Below are positions 20,037 to 30,075 of a stretch of DNA of 64,000 nt, piece after piece. Position numbers and translations under genes: made by a program. This DNA is from Thermoanaerobaculia bacterium (GTDB lineage: Bacteria > Acidobacteriota > Thermoanaerobaculia > Gp7-AA8), in assembly GCA_036398925.1 (NCBI GenBank), contig DASWOB010000022.1:53244-117243 (forward strand), given 5' to 3'. Below the pieces are notes generated by a model that saw only the letters and a program-made list of their open reading frames with translations, made no database searches and was not told where the DNA came from. Every line of letters begins with the position of its first letter. Position 1 is the stretch's first letter.

Positions 20037-20098
20037 TGGCGGGCCAATTAACACGGTTCCGCCCCTTTGTCATCCCGCAGGGGCCGCTTTTTGGCCCT

Positions 20099-20320
20099 TC
20101 AGGCCTTCCACTGCGTGCCGCAATCGAGGCAAACCCGCTCGTTGAAGAGCAGATTCGCGAGGATCGCGCCGGCGATGACCACCCCCGCCACGATGCCGGC
20201 GTGGAGCTCGAACGTCATCACCGCCACGGTGGCGAAGACGATCAGCAGCAGGTAGACGCCCCAGATTTTCGAGCCGCCGCGGCGGAAGCGGTCGGAGCCG
20301 CAGTTCGGACATTGAGTCAT
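20099..20320 (-). CDS. Small membrane protein with a split zinc-ribbon (CPNCG ... CLDCG)
   Basis: The ATG at 20318-20320 overlaps the stop of the S46 peptidase (ATGA). It encodes 73 aa, MTQCPNCGSDRF...two TM helices...RVCLDCGTQWKA. The upstream extension in the ORF track is Arg-rich junk. Confidence 0.4.
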   Translation of the reverse strand: MTQCPNCGSDRFRRGGSKIWGVYLLLIVFATVAVMTFELHAGIVAGVVIAGAILANLLFNERVCLDCGTQWKA

Positions 20321-22350
20321 GCGTTCGTGCTTGCGCCGAGCTCCCGCACCAGCCCGGTCGCGCCGTAAACCGCGCGGAGGATCTCCACGATCCCGCGCGT
20401 GTGGACGGCAATCGTGCGGCCGTCGCGCTCCTGATACGCAAAGCTGAAGCCGAGAGTGGGGAGATTGCCGTCGAATACCAGGCCGACCATCGACCCGGAA
20501 CGATCGACCAGCGGACTTCCGGAGCTTCCTCCCACCGTATCGATGGCTGCCACGAAGTTGAACGGCGTCGCCAGCGCCACACGCCCCTTGCGCGCAAGCC
20601 AGCGCTCCGGCAGATCGTACGGCTCGGCATTCGCGCGCGCGGCGGCGCGGTCGTACAGACCGGCGATCGTCGTCGACCACGGCTGCGTCACACCTTCTTC
20701 GTCGACGTAGCCGCGCACCGTGCCGAATCCGAGCCGGGGGGAAAACGTAGCGTCAGGATAGAGATCCGATTTCGCGGTGCGGAAACGGGCGCTGGCGATC
20801 TTCGCGTACGCCTGGCGCAGCGGCTCTTCGACCTCGCTCTCCCAGCGGCGGCGTGCGTTGCGCGCACGTTCGTCGACCAGCTTCGCGAGGAGGATCATCG
20901 GATCATCCGACGCGTCGACCGCCTCCGCGCCTCCTTCCAGCAGCGCGCGGCGTACCTCGACGTCGCCGAGCTTCGTGCCGCGCACCAGCTCCGTCGCGCG
21001 TGCCTTCGGCCCTTTGCCGGCCATCACCTGCCGCACGAGCGGATCGTCGGGAAACTTTTCGAGCAGCAGCGCCAGCGAGTCGGCGAGCATCCGCGCATCG
21101 AGGTCCTGCCAGGTCGACGTCTCCGCGAGGAGCTCGCTCTGCACGCCGATCAAGCGCGCGTCGGTGAACTCGCGCAGCCGCTCGCCGTTCGGTTTGGCCG
21201 ACTCGGCCGCATGGCGGACGATCTGCCGCGCCTGCGAAAAGAGGGCGCTGTCGAAGCCCCACGCCGATTCGAACATCCGCCGTTCGACGTGCAGCGCGCG
21301 ATCGGCGGCCAGGGCGCGCTCGATCGTCTGCCACGGCTCGGGCTCGCTCTGACGCAGGCTCGCCTCCGCGGCCCGCTTCTCTTCGATCGTGGCCGGATCC
21401 TGGAGGGCGGCCAACTCCCCCTCGTACGATTTGCGCGCGTTCTCGAGGTTCAGCAGCTCGTTGGCGGCGCGCCGCTCGTTCTCCGTGCTCCGCTGCGCGA
21501 ATTTGCGCAGCGTCAGCTCGCGGCGGCGGATCCGCTCGAGGATGAACGGATCGACGATGTCGCGCAGAAAGGCCAGATGCGCCGCGGTGCGACCGCGATC
21601 GGTGAAGCCGGGATTGCCCGAGGAGAGGACGAGATCGCCCTCCTTCGCGCCGGCCGCGCTCCAGCGCAGCCAGTGGCTGATCGGCGCCGGCCGGCCGTTC
21701 TCGTACGCGCGGAAAAAGCAGACGTCGAAGTTGTAGCGCGGGTACTCGAAATTGTCGGGATCGCCGCCGAAGAACGCCGCGTCCTCCTCCGGCGCGAAGA
21801 CCAGCCGCACGTCGGTGTAGGCGTGGTAGCGATAGAGGTGATACGCGCCGCCCTGATACAGCGTGACCACGTCGCTGCGCAGCTTCGTCTCCGTGAACGA
21901 CTCTTCCTCGATCGCGGCAATCGCCGCGCGACGGTCGCTTTCCGAGTTCCCGGCCGCATTCACACGCGCCGTCACGTCTTCGATGCTCGCCAGCACGTTC
22001 AGCTCCAGCGAACGGCACGGCAGCTCGTCCGCACGCGTCTTCGCCAGAAAGCCGTTCGCCACCAGGTTCTTTCGTTCGGTGCTGATCTCCGAAAGGCAGT
22101 CAATGCCGATGTGGTGGTTGGTGATGATCAGCGCGTCGGGGGAGACGAACGCCCCCGAGCCGCCGTTGTTGAAGCGGATCGACGAGTGCTGCAGGTGCTC
22201 GAGCCACTGCGCCGACGGCTCGAAACCGTAGCGCACGCGGAGCTGCTCGAGCGGCGGCGCGTTGAACAGCCACATGCCTTCATCGGCATGGAGAAATGGA
22301 CAGACGGAGAGCAGGAGACCGAGGGCGACGGAACGCAACGCGGCAGGCAT
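20317..22350 (-). CDS. S46-family serine peptidase (dipeptidyl-peptidase 7/11-like)
   Basis: 677-aa ORF with a signal peptide. DEGMWL follows the signal peptide, which is the S46 hallmark. There is a His region ITNHH and a C-terminal catalytic Ser region TVGGSSGSPLVDRSG. Confidence 0.8.
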   Translation of the reverse strand: MPAALRSVALGLLLSVCPFLHADEGMWLFNAPPLEQLRVRYGFEPSAQWLEHLQHSSIRFNNGGSGAFVSPDALIITNHHIGIDCLSEISTERKNLVANGFLAKTRADELPCRSLELNVLASIEDVTARVNAAGNSESDRRAAIAAIEEESFTETKLRSDVVTLYQGGAYHLYRYHAYTDVRLVFAPEEDAAFFGGDPDNFEYPRYNFDVCFFRAYENGRPAPISHWLRWSAAGAKEGDLVLSSGNPGFTDRGRTAAHLAFLRDIVDPFILERIRRRELTLRKFAQRSTENERRAANELLNLENARKSYEGELAALQDPATIEEKRAAEASLRQSEPEPWQTIERALAADRALHVERRMFESAWGFDSALFSQARQIVRHAAESAKPNGERLREFTDARLIGVQSELLAETSTWQDLDARMLADSLALLLEKFPDDPLVRQVMAGKGPKARATELVRGTKLGDVEVRRALLEGGAEAVDASDDPMILLAKLVDERARNARRRWESEVEEPLRQAYAKIASARFRTAKSDLYPDATFSPRLGFGTVRGYVDEEGVTQPWSTTIAGLYDRAAARANAEPYDLPERWLARKGRVALATPFNFVAAIDTVGGSSGSPLVDRSGSMVGLVFDGNLPTLGFSFAYQERDGRTIAVHTRGIVEILRAVYGATGLVRELGASTNA

Positions 22351-22359
22351 CGGGGCATG

Positions 22360-25074
22360 CTAACCGCGGAGCGCCGACCGCTCTTTCAACGCTTCGAGCG
22401 CCGGCAGATACTCCGACGCGCCGGGCGACTGCTCGGACAATGCGCCGCGCGCGCGGAGGTCGTGCAGAATTTTCACTCCCTCCTCGGCGGCGGCACGCGC
22501 GCCCGCCCGATCTCCCGACTCGAGGCGCGTGCTCCCGAGTTGCCACAGCGCACGGGCGAGCTCCTGCGCGTCGTGCGACTGGCCGCCGGTCGCGGCCCGG
22601 CGAGCCCGATCGACCGCCGCAACCGCTCTTGGCAAGGCACGCCCGAAGTCGCGCTGTTTGCGCAGCACGTCGACGATCGCCAGCTCGACCCAGATCACCG
22701 ATCGCAGGTGCTCGACATTCGACGGATCGCCCTGATACAGCGATTCGAAATCGCGCCGTGCCGATTCGAGGACGCGCTCGGCCTCCGCCAGACGGCCGGC
22801 GCGGGCCAGCGTCTCGCCTCGGGCCTGCGCATTGTTTGCGGTCGCGTTCACGACCGGCGGGATGGCGCCGTATTTCCCGCGATGCTCGCGCGCCAGGAGA
22901 TCCGCTTCCTCGAAGAGCGCCAGCGCGCGATCGGTCTCGCCACCGCGCCCGTACGTGCTGCCGACCTGACCGAGACCGCCCATGAGGTTCGTCAGCAGCA
23001 GGCGGTTGCCGGGATCGGCGCGTAGCAATCCGCGCTGGATTTGGATGCCTTCCTCGTACAGCTTCACCGCTTCCGCCGTATCGCCGCTCCCTTCCGCGTG
23101 GAATCCGCAGTTCTGCAGAGTGACGGCCAGATGGCGCCGCAGATCGCCGGAAGTCGGATCGAGCGTCACGTTGCGCCGGCGCAGCGCGAGCGTCTTTCGA
23201 TACTCGACGCAACTCTCATCGACACGCCCCGCGTAATAGAGCGAATCGGCGATGCGCTCCTGCGAGGTCGCCTGACGTGACGCGACGATGGCGTCGCGTG
23301 GAACCGCTTGCAGCACGGCGGTGTCGATGGCCAGCGCGCGCCGGAAAAGCGTCTCGGCGTGCGCGAACTTTCCTGCCTCGTACAGCCGGTCCGCTTTCCG
23401 CGATATGGCCAGGGCGTGCGAGCTGCACACGGCCGGCCGCGCGTCGGATCGAGCCCCGGCGCGGCCAAGGACGTCGATGGCGCGATCGTATGCGGCTACG
23501 CCCTCGGCCGGTTTGCTCATGGCCATGAGGATGTCGCCGAGCTCCAGTTCGACGATGCCGTACGTCGACAACTCGTCCGTACCGGCGGTCGCGGAGGCAA
23601 CGAGCGGCATGAGCGCGCGCTCGGCCACACGGATGCGCTGATAGGCCCGCGGCGCATCGCCGAGAGTCAGGTACGCCGAGGCCATGGCCCGGTTCGTCTC
23701 GCCGATGCGCAGATCGAGATCACGGTCCGCACCCCCCGTTTCCCTGACCCGATCGAGAATCAGCCGCGCGCGCTCGAGCAGTTGCAGCCGCGCCTCCGTC
23801 GGTCCGGACATGCGCGACATGGCGTCCGAAACCTGCAGAACCATGTCGCTCGCGGCGTCCGTGGCGATGGCGCGCTGCGCCGCAATCTGCCGACGCTGGA
23901 GCATCAGCGCGACGGCGCCGATGGCGACGATCAGCAGCACGACCGCCACTCCGACGGCGGCCCGGTGACGCTGCACGAACTTGCCGGAGCGATACGCCCA
24001 CGTGCCGCGCCGCGCCACGATCGGCAGTCCCTGCTGATGGCGGCGAATGTCCGCTGCCAGCTCGTCGACGGAGGCATAGCGCCGCGCCGGATCTTTCTCA
24101 AGCGCATGCAGGACGATGTTATCGAGATCGCCGCGCAATGCGCGCACCGCTTTGCTCGGCAGCGGCGGCTCGGCGTCGGCGATCGCGGCAATCGTCTCGG
24201 GCGTGATCGTTTCGAGCTGCACCAGCCGCCGGCCGGTGAGCAGTTCGTAGAGGATTACACCCAGCGAATAGACGTCGCTGCTGGTGGTGACGGTCTGCCC
24301 GCGCAGCTGCTCCGGACTCGCGTATTGCGGCGTCATCGGCCGCATGCCGAGAGCCGTGTTCGTGACCGGCCCGCCGGCGATCATCGGGTCGAGCACCTTG
24401 GCGATGCCGAAGTCGAGCAGCACCGGCCTCCCGTCCGACGCTACGACGATGTTGGACGGCTTCAGATCGCGATGGATGACCGACGAGCCATGCGCGTACG
24501 AAACGGCATCACAGATGGCGAGAAAGAGCGAGAGCCGGTCCGCGATGGAAGGCTGGCGATGCTCGGCCCAGGCGTCGATCGGCTCCCCTTCCACGTAATC
24601 CATCACCAGGTACGGCAGGCCGTCGCCGGTGGCGCCGCCGTCGATGATCCGGCCGATATTCGGATGATCGAGCGACGCGAGCACCTGCCGCTCGTAGTGA
24701 AAGCGGCGGATGATCTCGTCGGTGTCCATGCCTCGCTTGACGATCTTGAGCGCGACGCGCTTGCGGAAGGTATCGGTGCGCTCGGCGAGGTAAACCGTCC
24801 CCATCCCGCCGCGCGCGATCTCGCTGACGATGCGGTAGGCACCGACCGTCCTGCCGATCATCTCGTCGCGCAGCAACCCGGCGGCATCGAACGCCAGCGG
24901 TTTCTCGAGGAACCGCGGATCGTCGTCGTGGGATGCGAGCAGGGCGTCCACGCGCTCCCTCAGCGATTCGTCATCGCTCTCCCGCTCGAGGAACGGCCGG
25001 CGCTCGTCGGGTGGAAGCTCGAGCGCGCGATGGAACAGCGTCTTGATCCGATCCCACTGCCCGGCCGTATCCAT
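22360..25074 (-). CDS. Serine/threonine protein kinase with a long C-terminal TPR/tetratricopeptide-like sensor domain, paired with the upstream ECF sigma factor
   Basis: 904-aa ORF. Kinase motifs: GGMGTVYLAER, ALK, HRDLKPSNIVV, DFGIAK, SPEQ. There is a TM helix (AAVGVAVVLLIVAIGAVALM) and then about 500 aa of TPR-like repeats. The N-terminus MDTAGQWDRIKTLFHRALELPPDERRPFLE is typical of ECF-associated kinases. Confidence 0.85.
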   Translation of the reverse strand: MDTAGQWDRIKTLFHRALELPPDERRPFLERESDDESLRERVDALLASHDDDPRFLEKPLAFDAAGLLRDEMIGRTVGAYRIVSEIARGGMGTVYLAERTDTFRKRVALKIVKRGMDTDEIIRRFHYERQVLASLDHPNIGRIIDGGATGDGLPYLVMDYVEGEPIDAWAEHRQPSIADRLSLFLAICDAVSYAHGSSVIHRDLKPSNIVVASDGRPVLLDFGIAKVLDPMIAGGPVTNTALGMRPMTPQYASPEQLRGQTVTTSSDVYSLGVILYELLTGRRLVQLETITPETIAAIADAEPPLPSKAVRALRGDLDNIVLHALEKDPARRYASVDELAADIRRHQQGLPIVARRGTWAYRSGKFVQRHRAAVGVAVVLLIVAIGAVALMLQRRQIAAQRAIATDAASDMVLQVSDAMSRMSGPTEARLQLLERARLILDRVRETGGADRDLDLRIGETNRAMASAYLTLGDAPRAYQRIRVAERALMPLVASATAGTDELSTYGIVELELGDILMAMSKPAEGVAAYDRAIDVLGRAGARSDARPAVCSSHALAISRKADRLYEAGKFAHAETLFRRALAIDTAVLQAVPRDAIVASRQATSQERIADSLYYAGRVDESCVEYRKTLALRRRNVTLDPTSGDLRRHLAVTLQNCGFHAEGSGDTAEAVKLYEEGIQIQRGLLRADPGNRLLLTNLMGGLGQVGSTYGRGGETDRALALFEEADLLAREHRGKYGAIPPVVNATANNAQARGETLARAGRLAEAERVLESARRDFESLYQGDPSNVEHLRSVIWVELAIVDVLRKQRDFGRALPRAVAAVDRARRAATGGQSHDAQELARALWQLGSTRLESGDRAGARAAAEEGVKILHDLRARGALSEQSPGASEYLPALEALKERSALRG

Positions 25075-25331
25075 GAAGATCTCCGTGAGCCGTTCCGGAG
25101 CCGGATTCCGCGTGAGTCAGCGGGACCGAAGTTTCCGGAGACGACATGAGAAAGCGACACCTGTCCAACGTTCTGTACGCGCTCGCCGCCGCGACTGCCG
25201 CGGCGCCGTTTGCCCTTGCCCTCTTCACTCCCGCCGGCGCGGCCGCGGCCACCGCCGCGACTGCCGTCCTCGTGCTCGCACTCTTCACTGCCGCGGATGC
25301 CGCCGGTTCATGACGTGAGCTGCTGCCGCAA

Positions 25332-25871
25332 CTAGGCGCGGGCCATCGTCCAGTCGCGTTTGACCGTCGCCACGGCGATGCCGAGCGCCTCCGCCGTCTC
25401 CTCGTTCGTCGCCCCGGCGAAGTAGCGCAGCTCGACGATGCGGCTTTGTCGCTCATCGATCTCCGCCAGCCGCTGGAGCGCGCGATCGAGATCCTCGAGG
25501 TCGACCTCCCGCTCCGAGGTCGAGGCCGACAGCGCTTCGTCGAGCTCCAGCTTCGTCGCGCCGCCGCCACGCTTTTCCGCGCGGACGCTGCGTGCGTGAT
25601 CGACGAGCAGCCGGCGCATGATCTGCGCGGCAATCCCGAAGAAGTGCGCGCGATTCTGCCAGCGGACCCGGCGTTGATCGACGAGGCGCAGATAGGCCTC
25701 ATTGACGAGCGCGGTCGGCTGCAGGGTGTGATCGCCCCGCTCGCGCCCGAGATAGCCGCGAGCGAGGCCGCGCAGCTCGTCGTACACCAGCGGCATCAGC
25801 GCATCGAGCGCACCGCTGTCGCCGTCGCTCCATTCGAGCAGCAGCCGCGTGACCTCCGGACGGACGTCCAC
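25332..25871 (-). CDS. ECF (sigma-70 family) RNA polymerase sigma factor, kinase-associated type
   Basis: 179-aa ORF with sigma region 2 (ALVNEAYLRL) and region 4 (RIVELRYFAGATNEETAEALGIAVATVKRDW). It is co-oriented with and directly upstream of the Ser/Thr kinase, the arrangement seen for ECF43-like sigma factors. Confidence 0.85.
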   Translation of the reverse strand: MDVRPEVTRLLLEWSDGDSGALDALMPLVYDELRGLARGYLGRERGDHTLQPTALVNEAYLRLVDQRRVRWQNRAHFFGIAAQIMRRLLVDHARSVRAEKRGGGATKLELDEALSASTSEREVDLEDLDRALQRLAEIDERQSRIVELRYFAGATNEETAEALGIAVATVKRDWTMARA

Positions 25872-26046
25872 AATCAGGAGTGACGCCGGAGCACGATTCC
25901 TTACCCGCGGATTACCAGGAGGGGCGGCGGCGAAGCAGGGTGAGCCATGCGGTGGCTTCGGGAGAGAGGGGAAAATCGTGGCAGGACATCGAACCCTCCA
26001 GGCAGGAAAAGGAGGCGGGATCGAGCCCGCCTCCCGTGGTTGATCG

Positions 26047-26175
26047 TTAGTCGTCGTCGTCGTCGAAGAGAATGTCGGTTACCACTTCGGCGGTGAACCT
26101 CACGATGGTCGGTGCTTCGATGTCTTCCAGGATTTCCTCGATTCCCCACTTCACGATGGTCTTCAGGATCGACAT
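26047..26175 (-). CDS. Tiny ORF (42 aa) with a strong SD and a poly-Asp C-terminus; paralog of the next tiny ORF
   Basis: Hand translation gives MSILKTIVKWGIEEILEDIEAPTIVRFTAEVVTDILFDDDDD. SD gaaggag is 7 nt upstream of the ATG. It is below the ORF-track size cutoff. GC is lower than the surroundings. Confidence 0.4.
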   Translation of the reverse strand: MSILKTIVKWGIEEILEDIEAPTIVRFTAEVVTDILFDDDDD

Positions 26176-26192
26176 GACTGGCTCCTTCTCGG

Positions 26193-26346
26193 TTAGCTGA
26201 ATTTCGAGATGACTTTTCGGGTGACGAATTCGGCGGTCGCCTTCACGGCGATCTGACCCGACCGTGGCACTCCCACGGCCTCGGCGATCTTTTCGGCGGC
26301 CTTTCCGACAACGGTTTCGGCGGCGTATGTAATCAGTTTCAGCATT
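26193..26346 (-). CDS. Tiny ORF (50 aa) with a strong SD; paralog of the 26047..26175 ORF
   Basis: Hand translation gives [52 protein letters not shown] aggagg is 7 nt upstream. It shares K(L/T)I...I(A/V)V(K/R)(A/F)TAE(F/V)VT with the neighbouring ORF. Confidence 0.4.
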
Positions 26347-26424
26347 CGTTTTCCTCCTGCACAGACACGCGGAGAACGGCTGAAAAACGGCTCATGCTCA
26401 CCGGCACGTGCTAACGTCCGGTGC

Positions 26425-29589: not shown

Positions 29590-29693
29590 TACCGGGTGAA
29601 CGGGCCGGCTTCGGTGGCAACGAGCGGGTCGCTGTCGAGCCGTCGAGCGGCCTGACCGCGGAAGCAATCTCGCTGACGACGAAAGAGTGCGTG

Positions 29694-30075
29694 CTGGCGA
29701 TGCAAGCGCGATCGCTGGTAAGGGAAGGGCGGTGCGCCGGCAATGGAAGCGTGTTCGCTGGCAATGGAAGGGCGAGCGCTGGCAACGGAAGCGCGACCGC
29801 TGGCAACGGAAGCGCGTTCGCTGGCAACGGAAGCGCGACCGCCTGCAACGGAAGGGCGAGCGCTGGCAACGGAAGCGAGCTTTCTTACGTTGCAAGCCGC
29901 CCCGCTTCACTTGCCAGAGAACCTGGGTACGGAAGTCAGCGTGCGTTGTTGAGTTGCCAGCGGTCGCGCTCCCGTTGCCAGCGGTCGGCCTTCCGTTGCC
30001 AGCGGCCGCGCTTCCGTTGCCAGCGGTTGCCCTTCCGTTGCCAGCGGTCGTTCTTCCCGTGGCAACTGCCTTTTC
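29694..30075. repeat. Large imperfect palindrome: about 9 tandem 21-bp units (GCTGGCAACGGAAG + 7 variable nt) followed by about 6 units of the reverse complement (CGTTGCCAGCGG...CTTCC)
   Basis: 29737-29880 has repeats ctggcaa(c/t)ggaag(c/g)g(c/t)g(a/t)(c/g)cg with 21-nt period. 29950-30070 has cgttgccagcggnnnnncttc units that are exact reverse complements of the left units. A roughly 70-bp central spacer separates the arms. The array lies between the divergent HIBADH-like and DUF853 genes. Confidence 0.85.

Follow-up and report, generated by a model that had tools for sequence, protein, structure and literature searches.

Rapidly evolving helical-hairpin micro-proteins linked to an ECF43-like sigma factor and its Hanks-type kinase in a clade of uncultured Acidobacteriota

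Results

We analyzed a 64,000-nucleotide stretch of DNA from a metagenome-assembled Thermoanaerobaculia bacterium (phylum Acidobacteriota; contig DASWOB010000022.1 of GenBank assembly GCA_036398925.1, positions 53,244 to 117,243), here called the window, in which two short open reading frames (ORFs), orfB and orfA, lie in tandem upstream of genes for an extracytoplasmic function (ECF) sigma factor and a Ser/Thr kinase. Comparison with related loci indicates that orfB and orfA are real, conserved coding genes that are physically tied to this sigma/kinase clade, and that their products are helical-hairpin micro-proteins of a family undescribed as far as our searches reach. The same comparison places orfB, orfA, a third micro-ORF (ORF3), and an antisense gene for a protein of 55 amino acids (aa) as integral, lineage-specific parts of the sigma-kinase module; two transcription units of the module share a private promoter motif, and both this motif and an RNA hairpin are conserved. 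We hold the coding status of the pair and its linkage to the sigma-kinase genes with high confidence. As to function, the reading we favor is that the micro-proteins are feedback regulators, functionally like anti-sigma factors or MgrB-type proteins without belonging to either family, and we assign it a probability of about 0.4.

Two tandem micro-ORFs carry strong Shine-Dalgarno sites

On the minus strand, orfB (26193 to 26345; ORF1 type) translates into a basic 50-aa helical-hairpin micro-protein, and orfA (26047 to 26175; ORF2 type) into an acidic one of 42 aa with the C terminus DDDDD (MSILKTIVKWGIEEILEDIEAPTIVRFTAEVVTDILFDDDDD); net charges are +4 and −9, respectively. The original prediction, made from the DNA letters and a list of their ORFs, was right about the presence of both micro-ORFs and the DDDDD end of one of them. 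The source annotation lists orfB and orfA as hypothetical proteins VGF48_05170 and VGF48_05165. The Shine-Dalgarno (SD) sequence of orfB, AGGAGG (26353 to 26358), stands 7 nucleotides (nt) before its ATG, as first described, whereas GAAGGAG (26182 to 26188) precedes the ATG of orfA by 6 nt and not by the 7 nt then given; this second site falls within the 17 nt that separate the two ORFs. That near-consensus sites are unusual locally holds up: of the 19 genes called in the 20 kb around the pair, 11 lack an SD match of at least 4 nt, and just 4 have a match of at least 5 nt, orfB and orfA being two of these. The GC content across the pair (0.53 to 0.61) is also lower than around it (0.65 to 0.70), as had been stated. 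By codon position (GC1/GC2/GC3), it amounts to 0.58/0.44/0.72 in orfB and 0.55/0.26/0.81 in orfA, and both thus follow the order GC3 > GC1 > GC2 that marks genuine genes in this genome.

Orthologous loci keep the micro-ORFs in the same slot

Direct searches found little. A word-based search of 5.8 billion proteins returned only self-matches for orfB and orfA because their true relatives share no 5-residue words with them. Searches of Pfam, NCBIfam, PHROG, PADLOC, PDB, and Rfam gave no significant family match for either peptide (best E value in the PDB sequence search, 0.18), in agreement with the earlier remark that no family was recognizable. An exhaustive phmmer search added one locus, L174, a 1.5-kb contig with the gene order of the window (SDR-orfB-orfA-ORF3-sigma) and an orfB relative of 74% identity; two further phmmer matches were repeat-protein artifacts. 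With the kinase as the anchor, GTDB species genomes yielded paralogue-level ECF-Ser/Thr kinase (ECF-STK) loci only (30 to 51% identity in the best-matching segment), and these held no homologue of orfB/orfA, ORF3, or the 55-aa gene. With the divergent SDR gene as the anchor, metagenomes yielded related genomes (LepA, 85 to 91% identity; SDR, 72 to 81%) with syntenic LepA and SDR genes; the whole sigma-kinase-micro-ORF block was absent from them, and no orthologues were gained. Anchoring on the sigma factor recovered close orthologues of 69 to 92% identity, and we compared their contigs with the window.

These loci are described here by the identity of their sigma factor to that of the window. 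L174 (~97% over the 61 codons available) has an ORF1 of 50 aa, an ORF2 of 42 aa ending in DDDDD, the hairpin, ORF3, and a promoter-like motif, P2. L164 (89%) and L166/L167 (83%) each have an ORF1 of 49 aa, an ORF2 (49 and 48 aa, respectively) with a DEDE end, the hairpin, ORF3, P2, and the 55-aa gene. In L165 (92%), the contig begins within ORF3, and P2 and the 55-aa gene are present. L173 (82%) carries an ORF1 of 49 aa, an ORF2 of 49 aa with a hydrophobic end, ORF3, P2, and the 55-aa gene, and it lacks the hairpin; L168 (82%) is like L173, with ORF1 truncated to 24 aa. In L169 (76%), ORF1 is degenerate, and a 45-aa ORF2 is followed by a canonical terminator and then by an extra copy of a second promoter-like motif, P1, before an ORF3 variant (YHDFP). 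L172 (72%) has just one ORF, of 80 aa, made up of a hairpin peptide (..AEAIGVPEE..) joined to a tail that resembles ORF3 (..HHDVP..). Three lineages depart from this arrangement: L175 (78%) has P2, overlapping sigma and kinase genes, and no micro-ORFs; L170/L171 (74%) have P2 and a P1-driven membrane gene (58 aa), the upstream micro-ORFs being absent; and L176 (69%) has none of the elements. Most loci at 76 to 97% sigma identity thus hold one or two homologous ORFs of 42 to 50 aa in the same slot.

The outer flanks vary among the carriers and include genes for SDR, metallo-beta-lactamase fold, methyltransferase, MarR, and sortilin-like proteins. Because the outer flanking genes differ between loci, we consider the link between the micro-ORFs and the ECF-STK pair to be real; a check of conservation and synteny next to such pairs had been proposed at the outset, and its result is that homologous micro-ORFs keep their slot while the flanks differ. 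Profile hidden Markov models (HMMs) agree with this assignment. Those built from the orthologues recover the window copies from a six-frame database (orfB, E = 6e-23; orfA, E = 1e-16); family HMMs recover members at E = 1e-13 to 1e-27 overall and the ORF2 orthologues of L174, L164, L166, L168, L173, and L169 at E = 1e-16 to 1e-24. Beyond L174, identity of the orfB orthologues falls to ~40% (L164, L166, and L173), and every peptide sequence of the family is a singleton cluster in a collection of 15 billion proteins. We have so far found this rare family only within a narrow clade of uncultured Thermoanaerobaculia.

The micro-ORFs are coding and evolve rapidly

The ATG, SD, and inter-ORF spacing are kept even though the micro-ORFs share just ~50 to 60% nucleotide identity, and ORF length and a loop proline are likewise conserved across loci. 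The orfB SD (GCAGGAGGAAA) is kept in 6 of 8 P1-linked ORFs, with GCGGAGGAAA in L172 and a weaker GCAGGAAGG in L169, and AAGGAG(A) stands ahead of all ORF2 orthologues. In all 12 copies of ORF1 and ORF2, GC3 (0.72 to 0.84) exceeds GC1, which exceeds GC2 (0.26 to 0.49). Ratios of nonsynonymous to synonymous substitution (dN/dS; Nei-Gojobori) were calculated against the closest relative, L174. These were 0.48 for orfB and 0.68 for orfA (44% aa identity), a coding-like pattern by the synonymous/nonsynonymous test that the original prediction had named; for comparison, values were 0.24 for ORF3 (85% aa identity), 0.11 for the SDR gene (91%), and 0.06 for the first 61 codons of the sigma factor (97%). 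The two copies of orfA are different at 47 of 129 nt; no indels or stop codons have arisen, and both peptides retain W10, the A-P loop, VVT, and DDDDD. These ratios indicate that orfB and orfA are under purifying selection and evolve several-fold faster than their neighbors, a rate that may reflect either relaxed or diversifying selection. Such genes are easily lost in annotation. In L173 (3412 to 3909), the gene caller placed a 165-aa reverse ORF over three conserved forward-strand micro-ORFs, a misannotation in high-GC DNA.

ORF1 and ORF2 share a hairpin design

ORF1 and ORF2 have a common design of helix, [G/E/Q]-[V/L/A/M]-P loop, and helix, with small-residue stripes of the AxxxA/GxxxG type. 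AlphaFold2 models from single sequences place the helices of orfB at residues 2 to 24 and 28 to 49 (pLDDT, 84) and those of orfA, with low confidence, at residues 3 to 18 and 22 to 37 (pLDDT, 63). Foldseek returned nothing significant (best E value against PDB, 3), only generic hairpins; matches of orfB to the beta-prime subunit of RNA polymerase (RNAP; ranks 25 to 28, E ~9) were discarded as no evidence, given that any helical hairpin produces them. Neither peptide has a signal peptide or a hydrophobic segment of transmembrane (TM) length. Hydrophobic moments of 0.15 to 0.40, at a mean hydrophobicity of ~0.25, are modest, more globular than surface-seeking.

The two ORFs had been called paralogous and described as sharing a motif, K.I...I.V..TAE.VT. 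TAE.VT is exact in both, whereas the full motif is contiguous in neither, and TAE.VT is particular to the pair of this genome rather than a family signature. The Smith-Waterman score of orfB against orfA is 37, which was reached in 2 of 5,000 shuffles; BLASTP of the same pair reported nothing. The same local-alignment shuffle test gave p ~0.02 in L174 and ~0.05 in L164 and was not significant in L166 and L173. Profile-profile comparison of the ORF1 and ORF2 sets placed the G/x-P loops in register (P = 0.0012) with an HH probability of just 20%. We therefore describe orfB and orfA as probable diverged paralogues, which an old tandem duplication is likely to have produced.

The sigma-kinase pair is of the phosphorylation type

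The ECF sigma factor (25332 to 25871, minus strand) matches PF07638 (1.3e-55) and TIGR02999 (1.7e-65) and is of the phosphorylation-regulated, ECF43-like type. It comprises the sigma2 and sigma4 domains only (Sigma70_r4_2, 2.5e-09) and starts with GTG with no SD. Comparison with the published consensus shows that region 2.2 reads QPTA (HTLQPTALVNEAYL) in place of the canonical DAED. The ECF43 consensus at this position is QTTA, of which the second Thr is phosphorylated by a neighboring Hanks kinase, which permits binding to RNAP beta-prime (PMC8999054, PMC13147305). Here, a Hanks-type Ser/Thr kinase of 904 aa (22360 to 25074, minus strand; Pkinase, 1.6e-39) is encoded 257 nt downstream of the sigma gene on the same strand, with one TM helix (AAVGVAVVLLIVAIGAVALML) after the kinase domain and a C-terminal TPR ectodomain (matches to TPR_12 and TPR_2), and every orthologous locus retains this sigma-kinase pairing. 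No anti-sigma Pfam domain was detected in the 20-kb neighborhood, and orfB, orfA, and ORF3 had no anti-sigma, zf-HC2, or RskA-type match at E ≤ 1 in Pfam or NCBIfam. Given QPTA, the Hanks kinase, and the lack of an anti-sigma gene, we conclude that the module is a phosphorylation-type ECF system.

A hairpin, a third micro-ORF, and an antisense membrane gene complete the module

The module reads, in order, P1, orfB, orfA, hairpin, ORF3, P2, sigma gene, antisense 55-aa gene with its own P1, and kinase gene. The distance from the orfA stop to the ECF start is 175 nt, as had been claimed, yet the pair is not directly upstream of the sigma gene: the conserved hairpin and the third micro-ORF intervene, so that this apparent spacer is densely occupied by a hairpin, an SD-preceded ORF, and the P2 motif. 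The hairpin (26006 to 26035, minus strand), a GC-rich 10-bp stem followed by UUUU(CC), begins 11 nt after orfA, and a 66-nt segment containing it folds at −27.7 kcal/mol (z = −2.4). Hairpins occur at the same place in L174, L164, L166, and L169 with stems of different sequence (in four loci, the hairpin starts 11 to 14 nt past the orfA stop), and one change relative to L174 is a compensatory pair, A-U to G-C. The U-run is found in the window and L169 only, and the hairpin is absent in L168 and L173. The hairpin is probably a leaky terminator or a stabilizer; an attenuator is a further candidate. If it is leaky, more orfB/orfA than sigma-kinase message is to be expected.

ORF3 (25912 to 25989, minus strand; MSCHDFPLSPEATAWLTLLRRRPSW) encodes 25 aa and is preceded by a GGAGG SD at 25995 to 25999. 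Its start, M[SN]CHDFP, is kept in L174, L164, L166, L168, and L173, with YHDFP in L169, and codons 5 to 7 change only synonymously at the third position across six loci (GAT/GAC, TTT/TTC, and CCC/CCA/CCT), from which we take ORF3 to be coding as well. An N-terminal extension of the sigma factor was ruled out by the different frame and the conserved stop. The fusion of a hairpin peptide to an ORF3-like tail in L172 suggests that the functions of the two are linked.

The 55-aa gene (25146 to 25313, plus strand; GGAG ahead; NCBI, hypothetical protein VGF48_05155) lies antisense between the sigma and kinase genes and encodes a two-TM micro-protein. It is kept in 8 loci (MRKRHLSNV..APFALALF..LLTAADAAAS), with differences at codon positions 1, 2, and 3 of 0.27, 0.21, and 0.53, and is absent where the sigma and kinase genes overlap (L175 and L176). 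Its transcript would be antisense to the 3′ end of the sigma gene.

Two promoter-like motifs mark the locus

P1 (GAGCCG-N16-CGCGTG; 26366 to 26393, minus strand) ends 20 nt ahead of the orfB ATG, and a second, exact copy on the opposite strand (25087 to 25114, plus strand) lies 31 nt ahead of the 55-aa gene. Two exact copies in the 64-kb window compare with 0.14 expected, and at least two were found in 0 of 100 shuffles. With the same 16-nt spacing, P1 precedes the first micro-ORF in L174, L164, L166, L168, L173, L169, and L172, and the P1 region of orfB is 100% identical to that of L174 over ~45 nt. The second P1 is kept in L164, L165, L166, L168, and L170 (with CGCGTT) and has one mismatch in L169. 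In every carrier, a fixed 16-nt spacer of nonconserved sequence separates the two halves, and the motif stands 19 to 31 nt upstream of an SD-preceded small ORF, an arrangement that reads as the signature of an alternative-sigma promoter. The terminator after ORF2 in L169, together with the extra P1 before ORF3 and the sigma gene there, suggests that transcription from P1 normally reaches the sigma gene. ECF sigma factors usually autoregulate (PMC7826278), and from this rule and the locality of the motif we infer that P1 is the sigma factor's own promoter.

P2 (GGGTAA-N15-CGTCAC; 25880 to 25906, minus strand) is unique in the window (0 expected) and ends 8 nt ahead of the ECF start. It occurs in all orthologues at ≥72% sigma identity, even where micro-ORFs are lacking (L170 and L175), and its −10-like CGTCAC(T) ends 8 to 9 nt ahead of the SD-less sigma start. 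The sigma mRNA would thus be leaderless, with P2 as its probable promoter. Another parsing, GGAAT...CGTC, was ruled out, as its spacer is merely 10 nt. The sigma, SDR (26425, plus strand), and LepA (20054, minus strand) genes all lack an SD and have a −10-like hexamer 7 to 9 nt before the start codon, which suggests that leaderless mRNAs are widespread in this organism.

In a set of 80 more distant ECF-STK loci, P1 was absent except for a single exact match within the kinase gene of L020, probably a chance occurrence; these 80 loci also lacked the micro-ORFs and the antisense membrane gene. Upstream regions of 35 distant ECF genes were too heterogeneous for a shared motif that would decide between P1 and P2, and no ECF43 promoter consensus was found in the reachable literature, including the Casas-Pastor supplement.

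Genomic surroundings of the module

Related loci (L084 to L092 and L100) have neighboring genes for LepA, a zinc-ribbon/two-TM protein of 73 aa, and SDR. Between these genes lies a slot, corresponding to ~20070 to 26400 of the window, that is a variable hotspot. Its occupant in L084 is a membrane protein of 425 aa, which is fragmented in L092; in L088 it is a secreted protein of 231 aa, and in the window the slot is filled by an S46 peptidase, the kinase, the sigma factor, and the micro-ORFs. Because LepA-SDR relatives occur without it, the S46 peptidase-kinase-sigma-micro-ORF block is best described as an insertion into this slot. Two repeat features were noted in passing. In L100, LepA and the 73-aa gene are separated by a short, degenerate run of CCTATAGGT/CCTATAAGT repeats (~790 to 880). 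In the window, 21-bp tandem repeats at 29693 to 29877 (8.8 copies) and 29953 to 30057 (5 copies) are arranged as an inverted pair, the unit being GCTGGCAACGGAAGCGCGAGC in one array and approximately the reverse complement in the other; they lie between NAD-binding dehydrogenase and HerA-like genes.

Discussion

A candidate feedback circuit

The arrangement of the module can be read as a feedback circuit. An envelope signal would activate the kinase, which would phosphorylate the sigma factor at the Thr of QPTA, and the sigma-RNAP complex would then fire the P1 promoters. Strong SDs and the leaky hairpin would make orfB and orfA abundant, while read-through would raise expression of ORF3, the sigma factor, and the kinase. 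From the opposite strand, P1 would yield the two-TM micro-protein along with a transcript that is antisense to the 3′ end of the sigma gene and to the junction of the sigma and kinase genes. The basic and acidic hairpins (+4 with −9) may pair into a small helical bundle; this bundle, with ORF3, could modulate the sigma factor or the cytoplasmic part of the kinase, and the membrane micro-protein could modulate the kinase in the membrane, closing the loop. Both the pairing of the orfB and orfA proteins and their action as regulators are inferred here. Small regulators or anti-sigma-like partners were among the roles first proposed, and this class remains the most plausible one, with no anti-sigma domain detectable.

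Several observations weigh against this reading, which draws on sequence data. Neither profile nor fold searches relate orfB or orfA to any anti-sigma or regulator family. The sister lineages L170, L175, and L176 keep the sigma-kinase pair without the upstream micro-ORFs, which makes the latter dispensable accessories, and the acidic tail and charge complementarity are limited to one sub-clade. With 44% identity to L174 against ~97% for the sigma factor, orfA diverges more than would be expected of a protein that tightly partners a conserved surface. The motif immediately upstream of the sigma gene is P2 and not P1, and since P1 is missing from distant ECF-STK loci, its assignment to this sigma factor depends on locality. 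In the window, the hairpin with its U-run may terminate the transcript. Lastly, the high abundance implied by strong SDs and a hairpin would fit effectors equally well.

Alternative roles

The main rival starts from this last point. In it, the micro-proteins and the 55-aa membrane protein would be pure output, the sigma factor's main local regulon of stress effectors (for example, amphipathic or small-residue-zipper helices at the inner membrane), with no feedback on the sigma factor or the kinase; we consider this possible but less probable than regulation. It would account for strong SDs in a genome where SDs are rare and for a leaky hairpin, which would make the peptide transcript more abundant, and fast evolution is ill-suited to a tight interface on a sigma factor that is 97% conserved. 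The dispensability of the micro-ORFs in sister lineages and the recurrence of AxxxA/GxxxG stripes in the helices point the same way, as do the envelope-stress roles of known ECF43 systems, which answer polymyxin (EcfP/PknT) and amoeba predation (EcfK/PknS) (PMC8999054, PMC13147305). Effectors of the membrane are harder to reconcile with the modest, globular hydrophobic moments of orfB and orfA and with their lack of a signal peptide or TM segment. It would also be unusual for a regulon to consist entirely of micro-proteins encoded within the locus of their regulator, and the fusion with ORF3 and the antisense position of the 55-aa gene have a regulatory look.

Much less probably, orfB and orfA could be cis-acting leader ORFs whose translation, rather than whose peptides, controls the hairpin and read-through into ORF3, the sigma gene, and the kinase gene. 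Such a role would fit their location at the 5′ side of the sigma operon, the hairpin that in four loci starts 11 to 14 nt past orfA, and the absence of an SD from the sigma gene, and ORF3 is short and ends 40 nt ahead of the sigma start; it is for ORF3 that the leader reading is most plausible. Leaders of this kind would be expected to encode peptides that, regulatory codons aside, are largely unconstrained. The pair, however, comprises two ORFs of 42 to 50 codons, each with a strong SD of its own, and has HMM-detectable conservation at the protein level, including the helix-G/x-P-helix design. L168 and L173 keep the ORFs without the hairpin, L172 fuses a peptide to ORF3, and the U-run is missing after the hairpin in most loci. 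Phase-variable leader peptides, which had also been suggested, are excluded: the sole repeat, GAC x5, is in frame and is interrupted in L174 (GATGACGATGACGAC), the P1 spacer is fixed at 16 nt, and the peptides are conserved as proteins.

A further reading takes the pair as a two-peptide bacteriocin, a pheromone, or a secreted signal, which the periplasmic TPR domain of the kinase would sense. TPR domains bind EEVD tails, to which the DDDDD and DEDE C termini bear a likeness. Two neighboring genes for small peptides with small-xxx-small motifs and a hairpin that follows them, an arrangement known from some bacteriocin operons, also recall such systems. We nevertheless regard this idea as very unlikely, and the original suggestion of a two-peptide signal or bacteriocin is not supported. 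Neither peptide has a double-glycine or other leader: the GG dipeptide is absent from both, and the predicted helices begin at residue 2 or 3. An ABC transporter, C39 peptidase, and immunity gene are absent from the neighborhood of the pair in the window and from all orthologous loci, where the only conserved partners are the sigma factor, the kinase, ORF3, and the 55-aa gene. Class IIb peptides are cationic when mature and have GxxxG-type motifs; the pair has AxxxA/GxxxG stripes, but orfA has a charge of −9 and charges vary among orthologues. PADLOC, PHROGs, and Pfam give no match. Least credible of all are chance ORFs or newly born genes without function, a reading prompted by the lack of a family beyond singleton clusters, the high dN/dS of orfA, and the frequency of 45-codon open frames in high-GC DNA; it is largely refuted by the comparative data, that is, by start, SD, length, and loop proline conserved at ~50 to 60% nucleotide identity, by the GC3 signature in every copy, and by micro-ORFs that travel with the sigma-kinase pair into varied genomic contexts.

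Within the favored, regulatory reading, a bolder version can be sketched, although we think it improbable. The micro-proteins would be dedicated protein regulators, the first for an ECF sigma factor activated by phosphorylation: orfB would capture the phosphorylated 2.2 surface (for example, as a mimic of the beta-prime clamp helices), orfA would titrate orfB, and ORF3 and the two-TM protein would tune sigma translation and kinase activity, all driven from P1. The prevailing view of ECF43 and related ECF sigma factors, which are controlled by phosphorylation, is that the kinase is their only partner protein. The clade described here carries four conserved micro-protein genes and a private bipartite promoter motif. 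If P1 is a target of the sigma factor, the locus would constitute a compact, self-contained circuit that could be rebuilt in a heterologous host, where the influence of small proteins on sigma-factor phosphorylation signaling could be tested directly. The locus also illustrates how fast-evolving micro-proteins escape word-based homology searches and are revealed by synteny alone, and how gene callers overlook their genes or put them on the wrong strand.

Comparison with known systems

MgrB-type proteins are small membrane regulators of sensor kinases. Like them, the 55-aa two-TM protein is a small membrane protein encoded within a signaling locus, and for this reason and because of its P1 motif it is a plausible source of negative feedback on the membrane kinase. 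It differs in having no sequence relation to MgrB, in its antisense position between the sigma and kinase genes, and in its prospective partner, a Hanks rather than a histidine kinase. Rop-like hairpins, which dimerize into four-helix bundles, resemble the predicted hairpins of ~45 to 50 residues, and Rop variants appear among the nonsignificant Foldseek matches; neither structure nor sequence searches gave a significant match (best E value in Foldseek, 3), and the resemblance is one of generic fold only. Class IIb and leaderless bacteriocins likewise come as paired genes for helical peptides of ~40 to 50 aa with AxxxA/GxxxG stripes and a hairpin behind. The pair described here departs from them in its acidic partner, in the lack of leader, transporter, and immunity genes, and in its linkage to the sigma factor and kinase only.

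ECF/anti-sigma operons with small cotranscribed regulators offer a closer functional parallel, with small proteins encoded in an autoregulated ECF unit. A feedback role is the default expectation for small proteins in an autoregulated ECF transcription unit (PMC7826278). The micro-ORFs nonetheless lie upstream and not downstream of the sigma gene, evolve quickly, and are not universally present. Anti-sigma domains (ASD/zf-HC2) span ~80 to 90 residues, often with an H-x3-C-x2-C zinc site, whereas the micro-ORFs encode 25 to 50 aa, the 42- to 50-aa pair has no anti-sigma or zf-HC2 match, and ORF3 has just an N-terminal C-H pair.

The closest relatives in kind are EcfP-PknT of Vibrio parahaemolyticus and EcfK-PknS of Xanthomonas citri. 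The published accounts of these systems consulted here mention no upstream micro-ORFs, antisense membrane micro-protein, or P1-type motif (PMC8999054, PMC13147305), and as far as our searches reach, the micro-protein layer and the P1 and P2 motifs appear to be undescribed additions to an ECF43-type sigma/kinase pair that is itself of a known kind. As in the window, their sigma factors are of the Sigma70_ECF/TIGR02999 type and adjoin a membrane-spanning Hanks kinase with no anti-sigma gene, and the QPTA of the window sigma factor holds the Thr that is phosphorylated in EcfP and EcfK (PMC8999054, PMC13147305).

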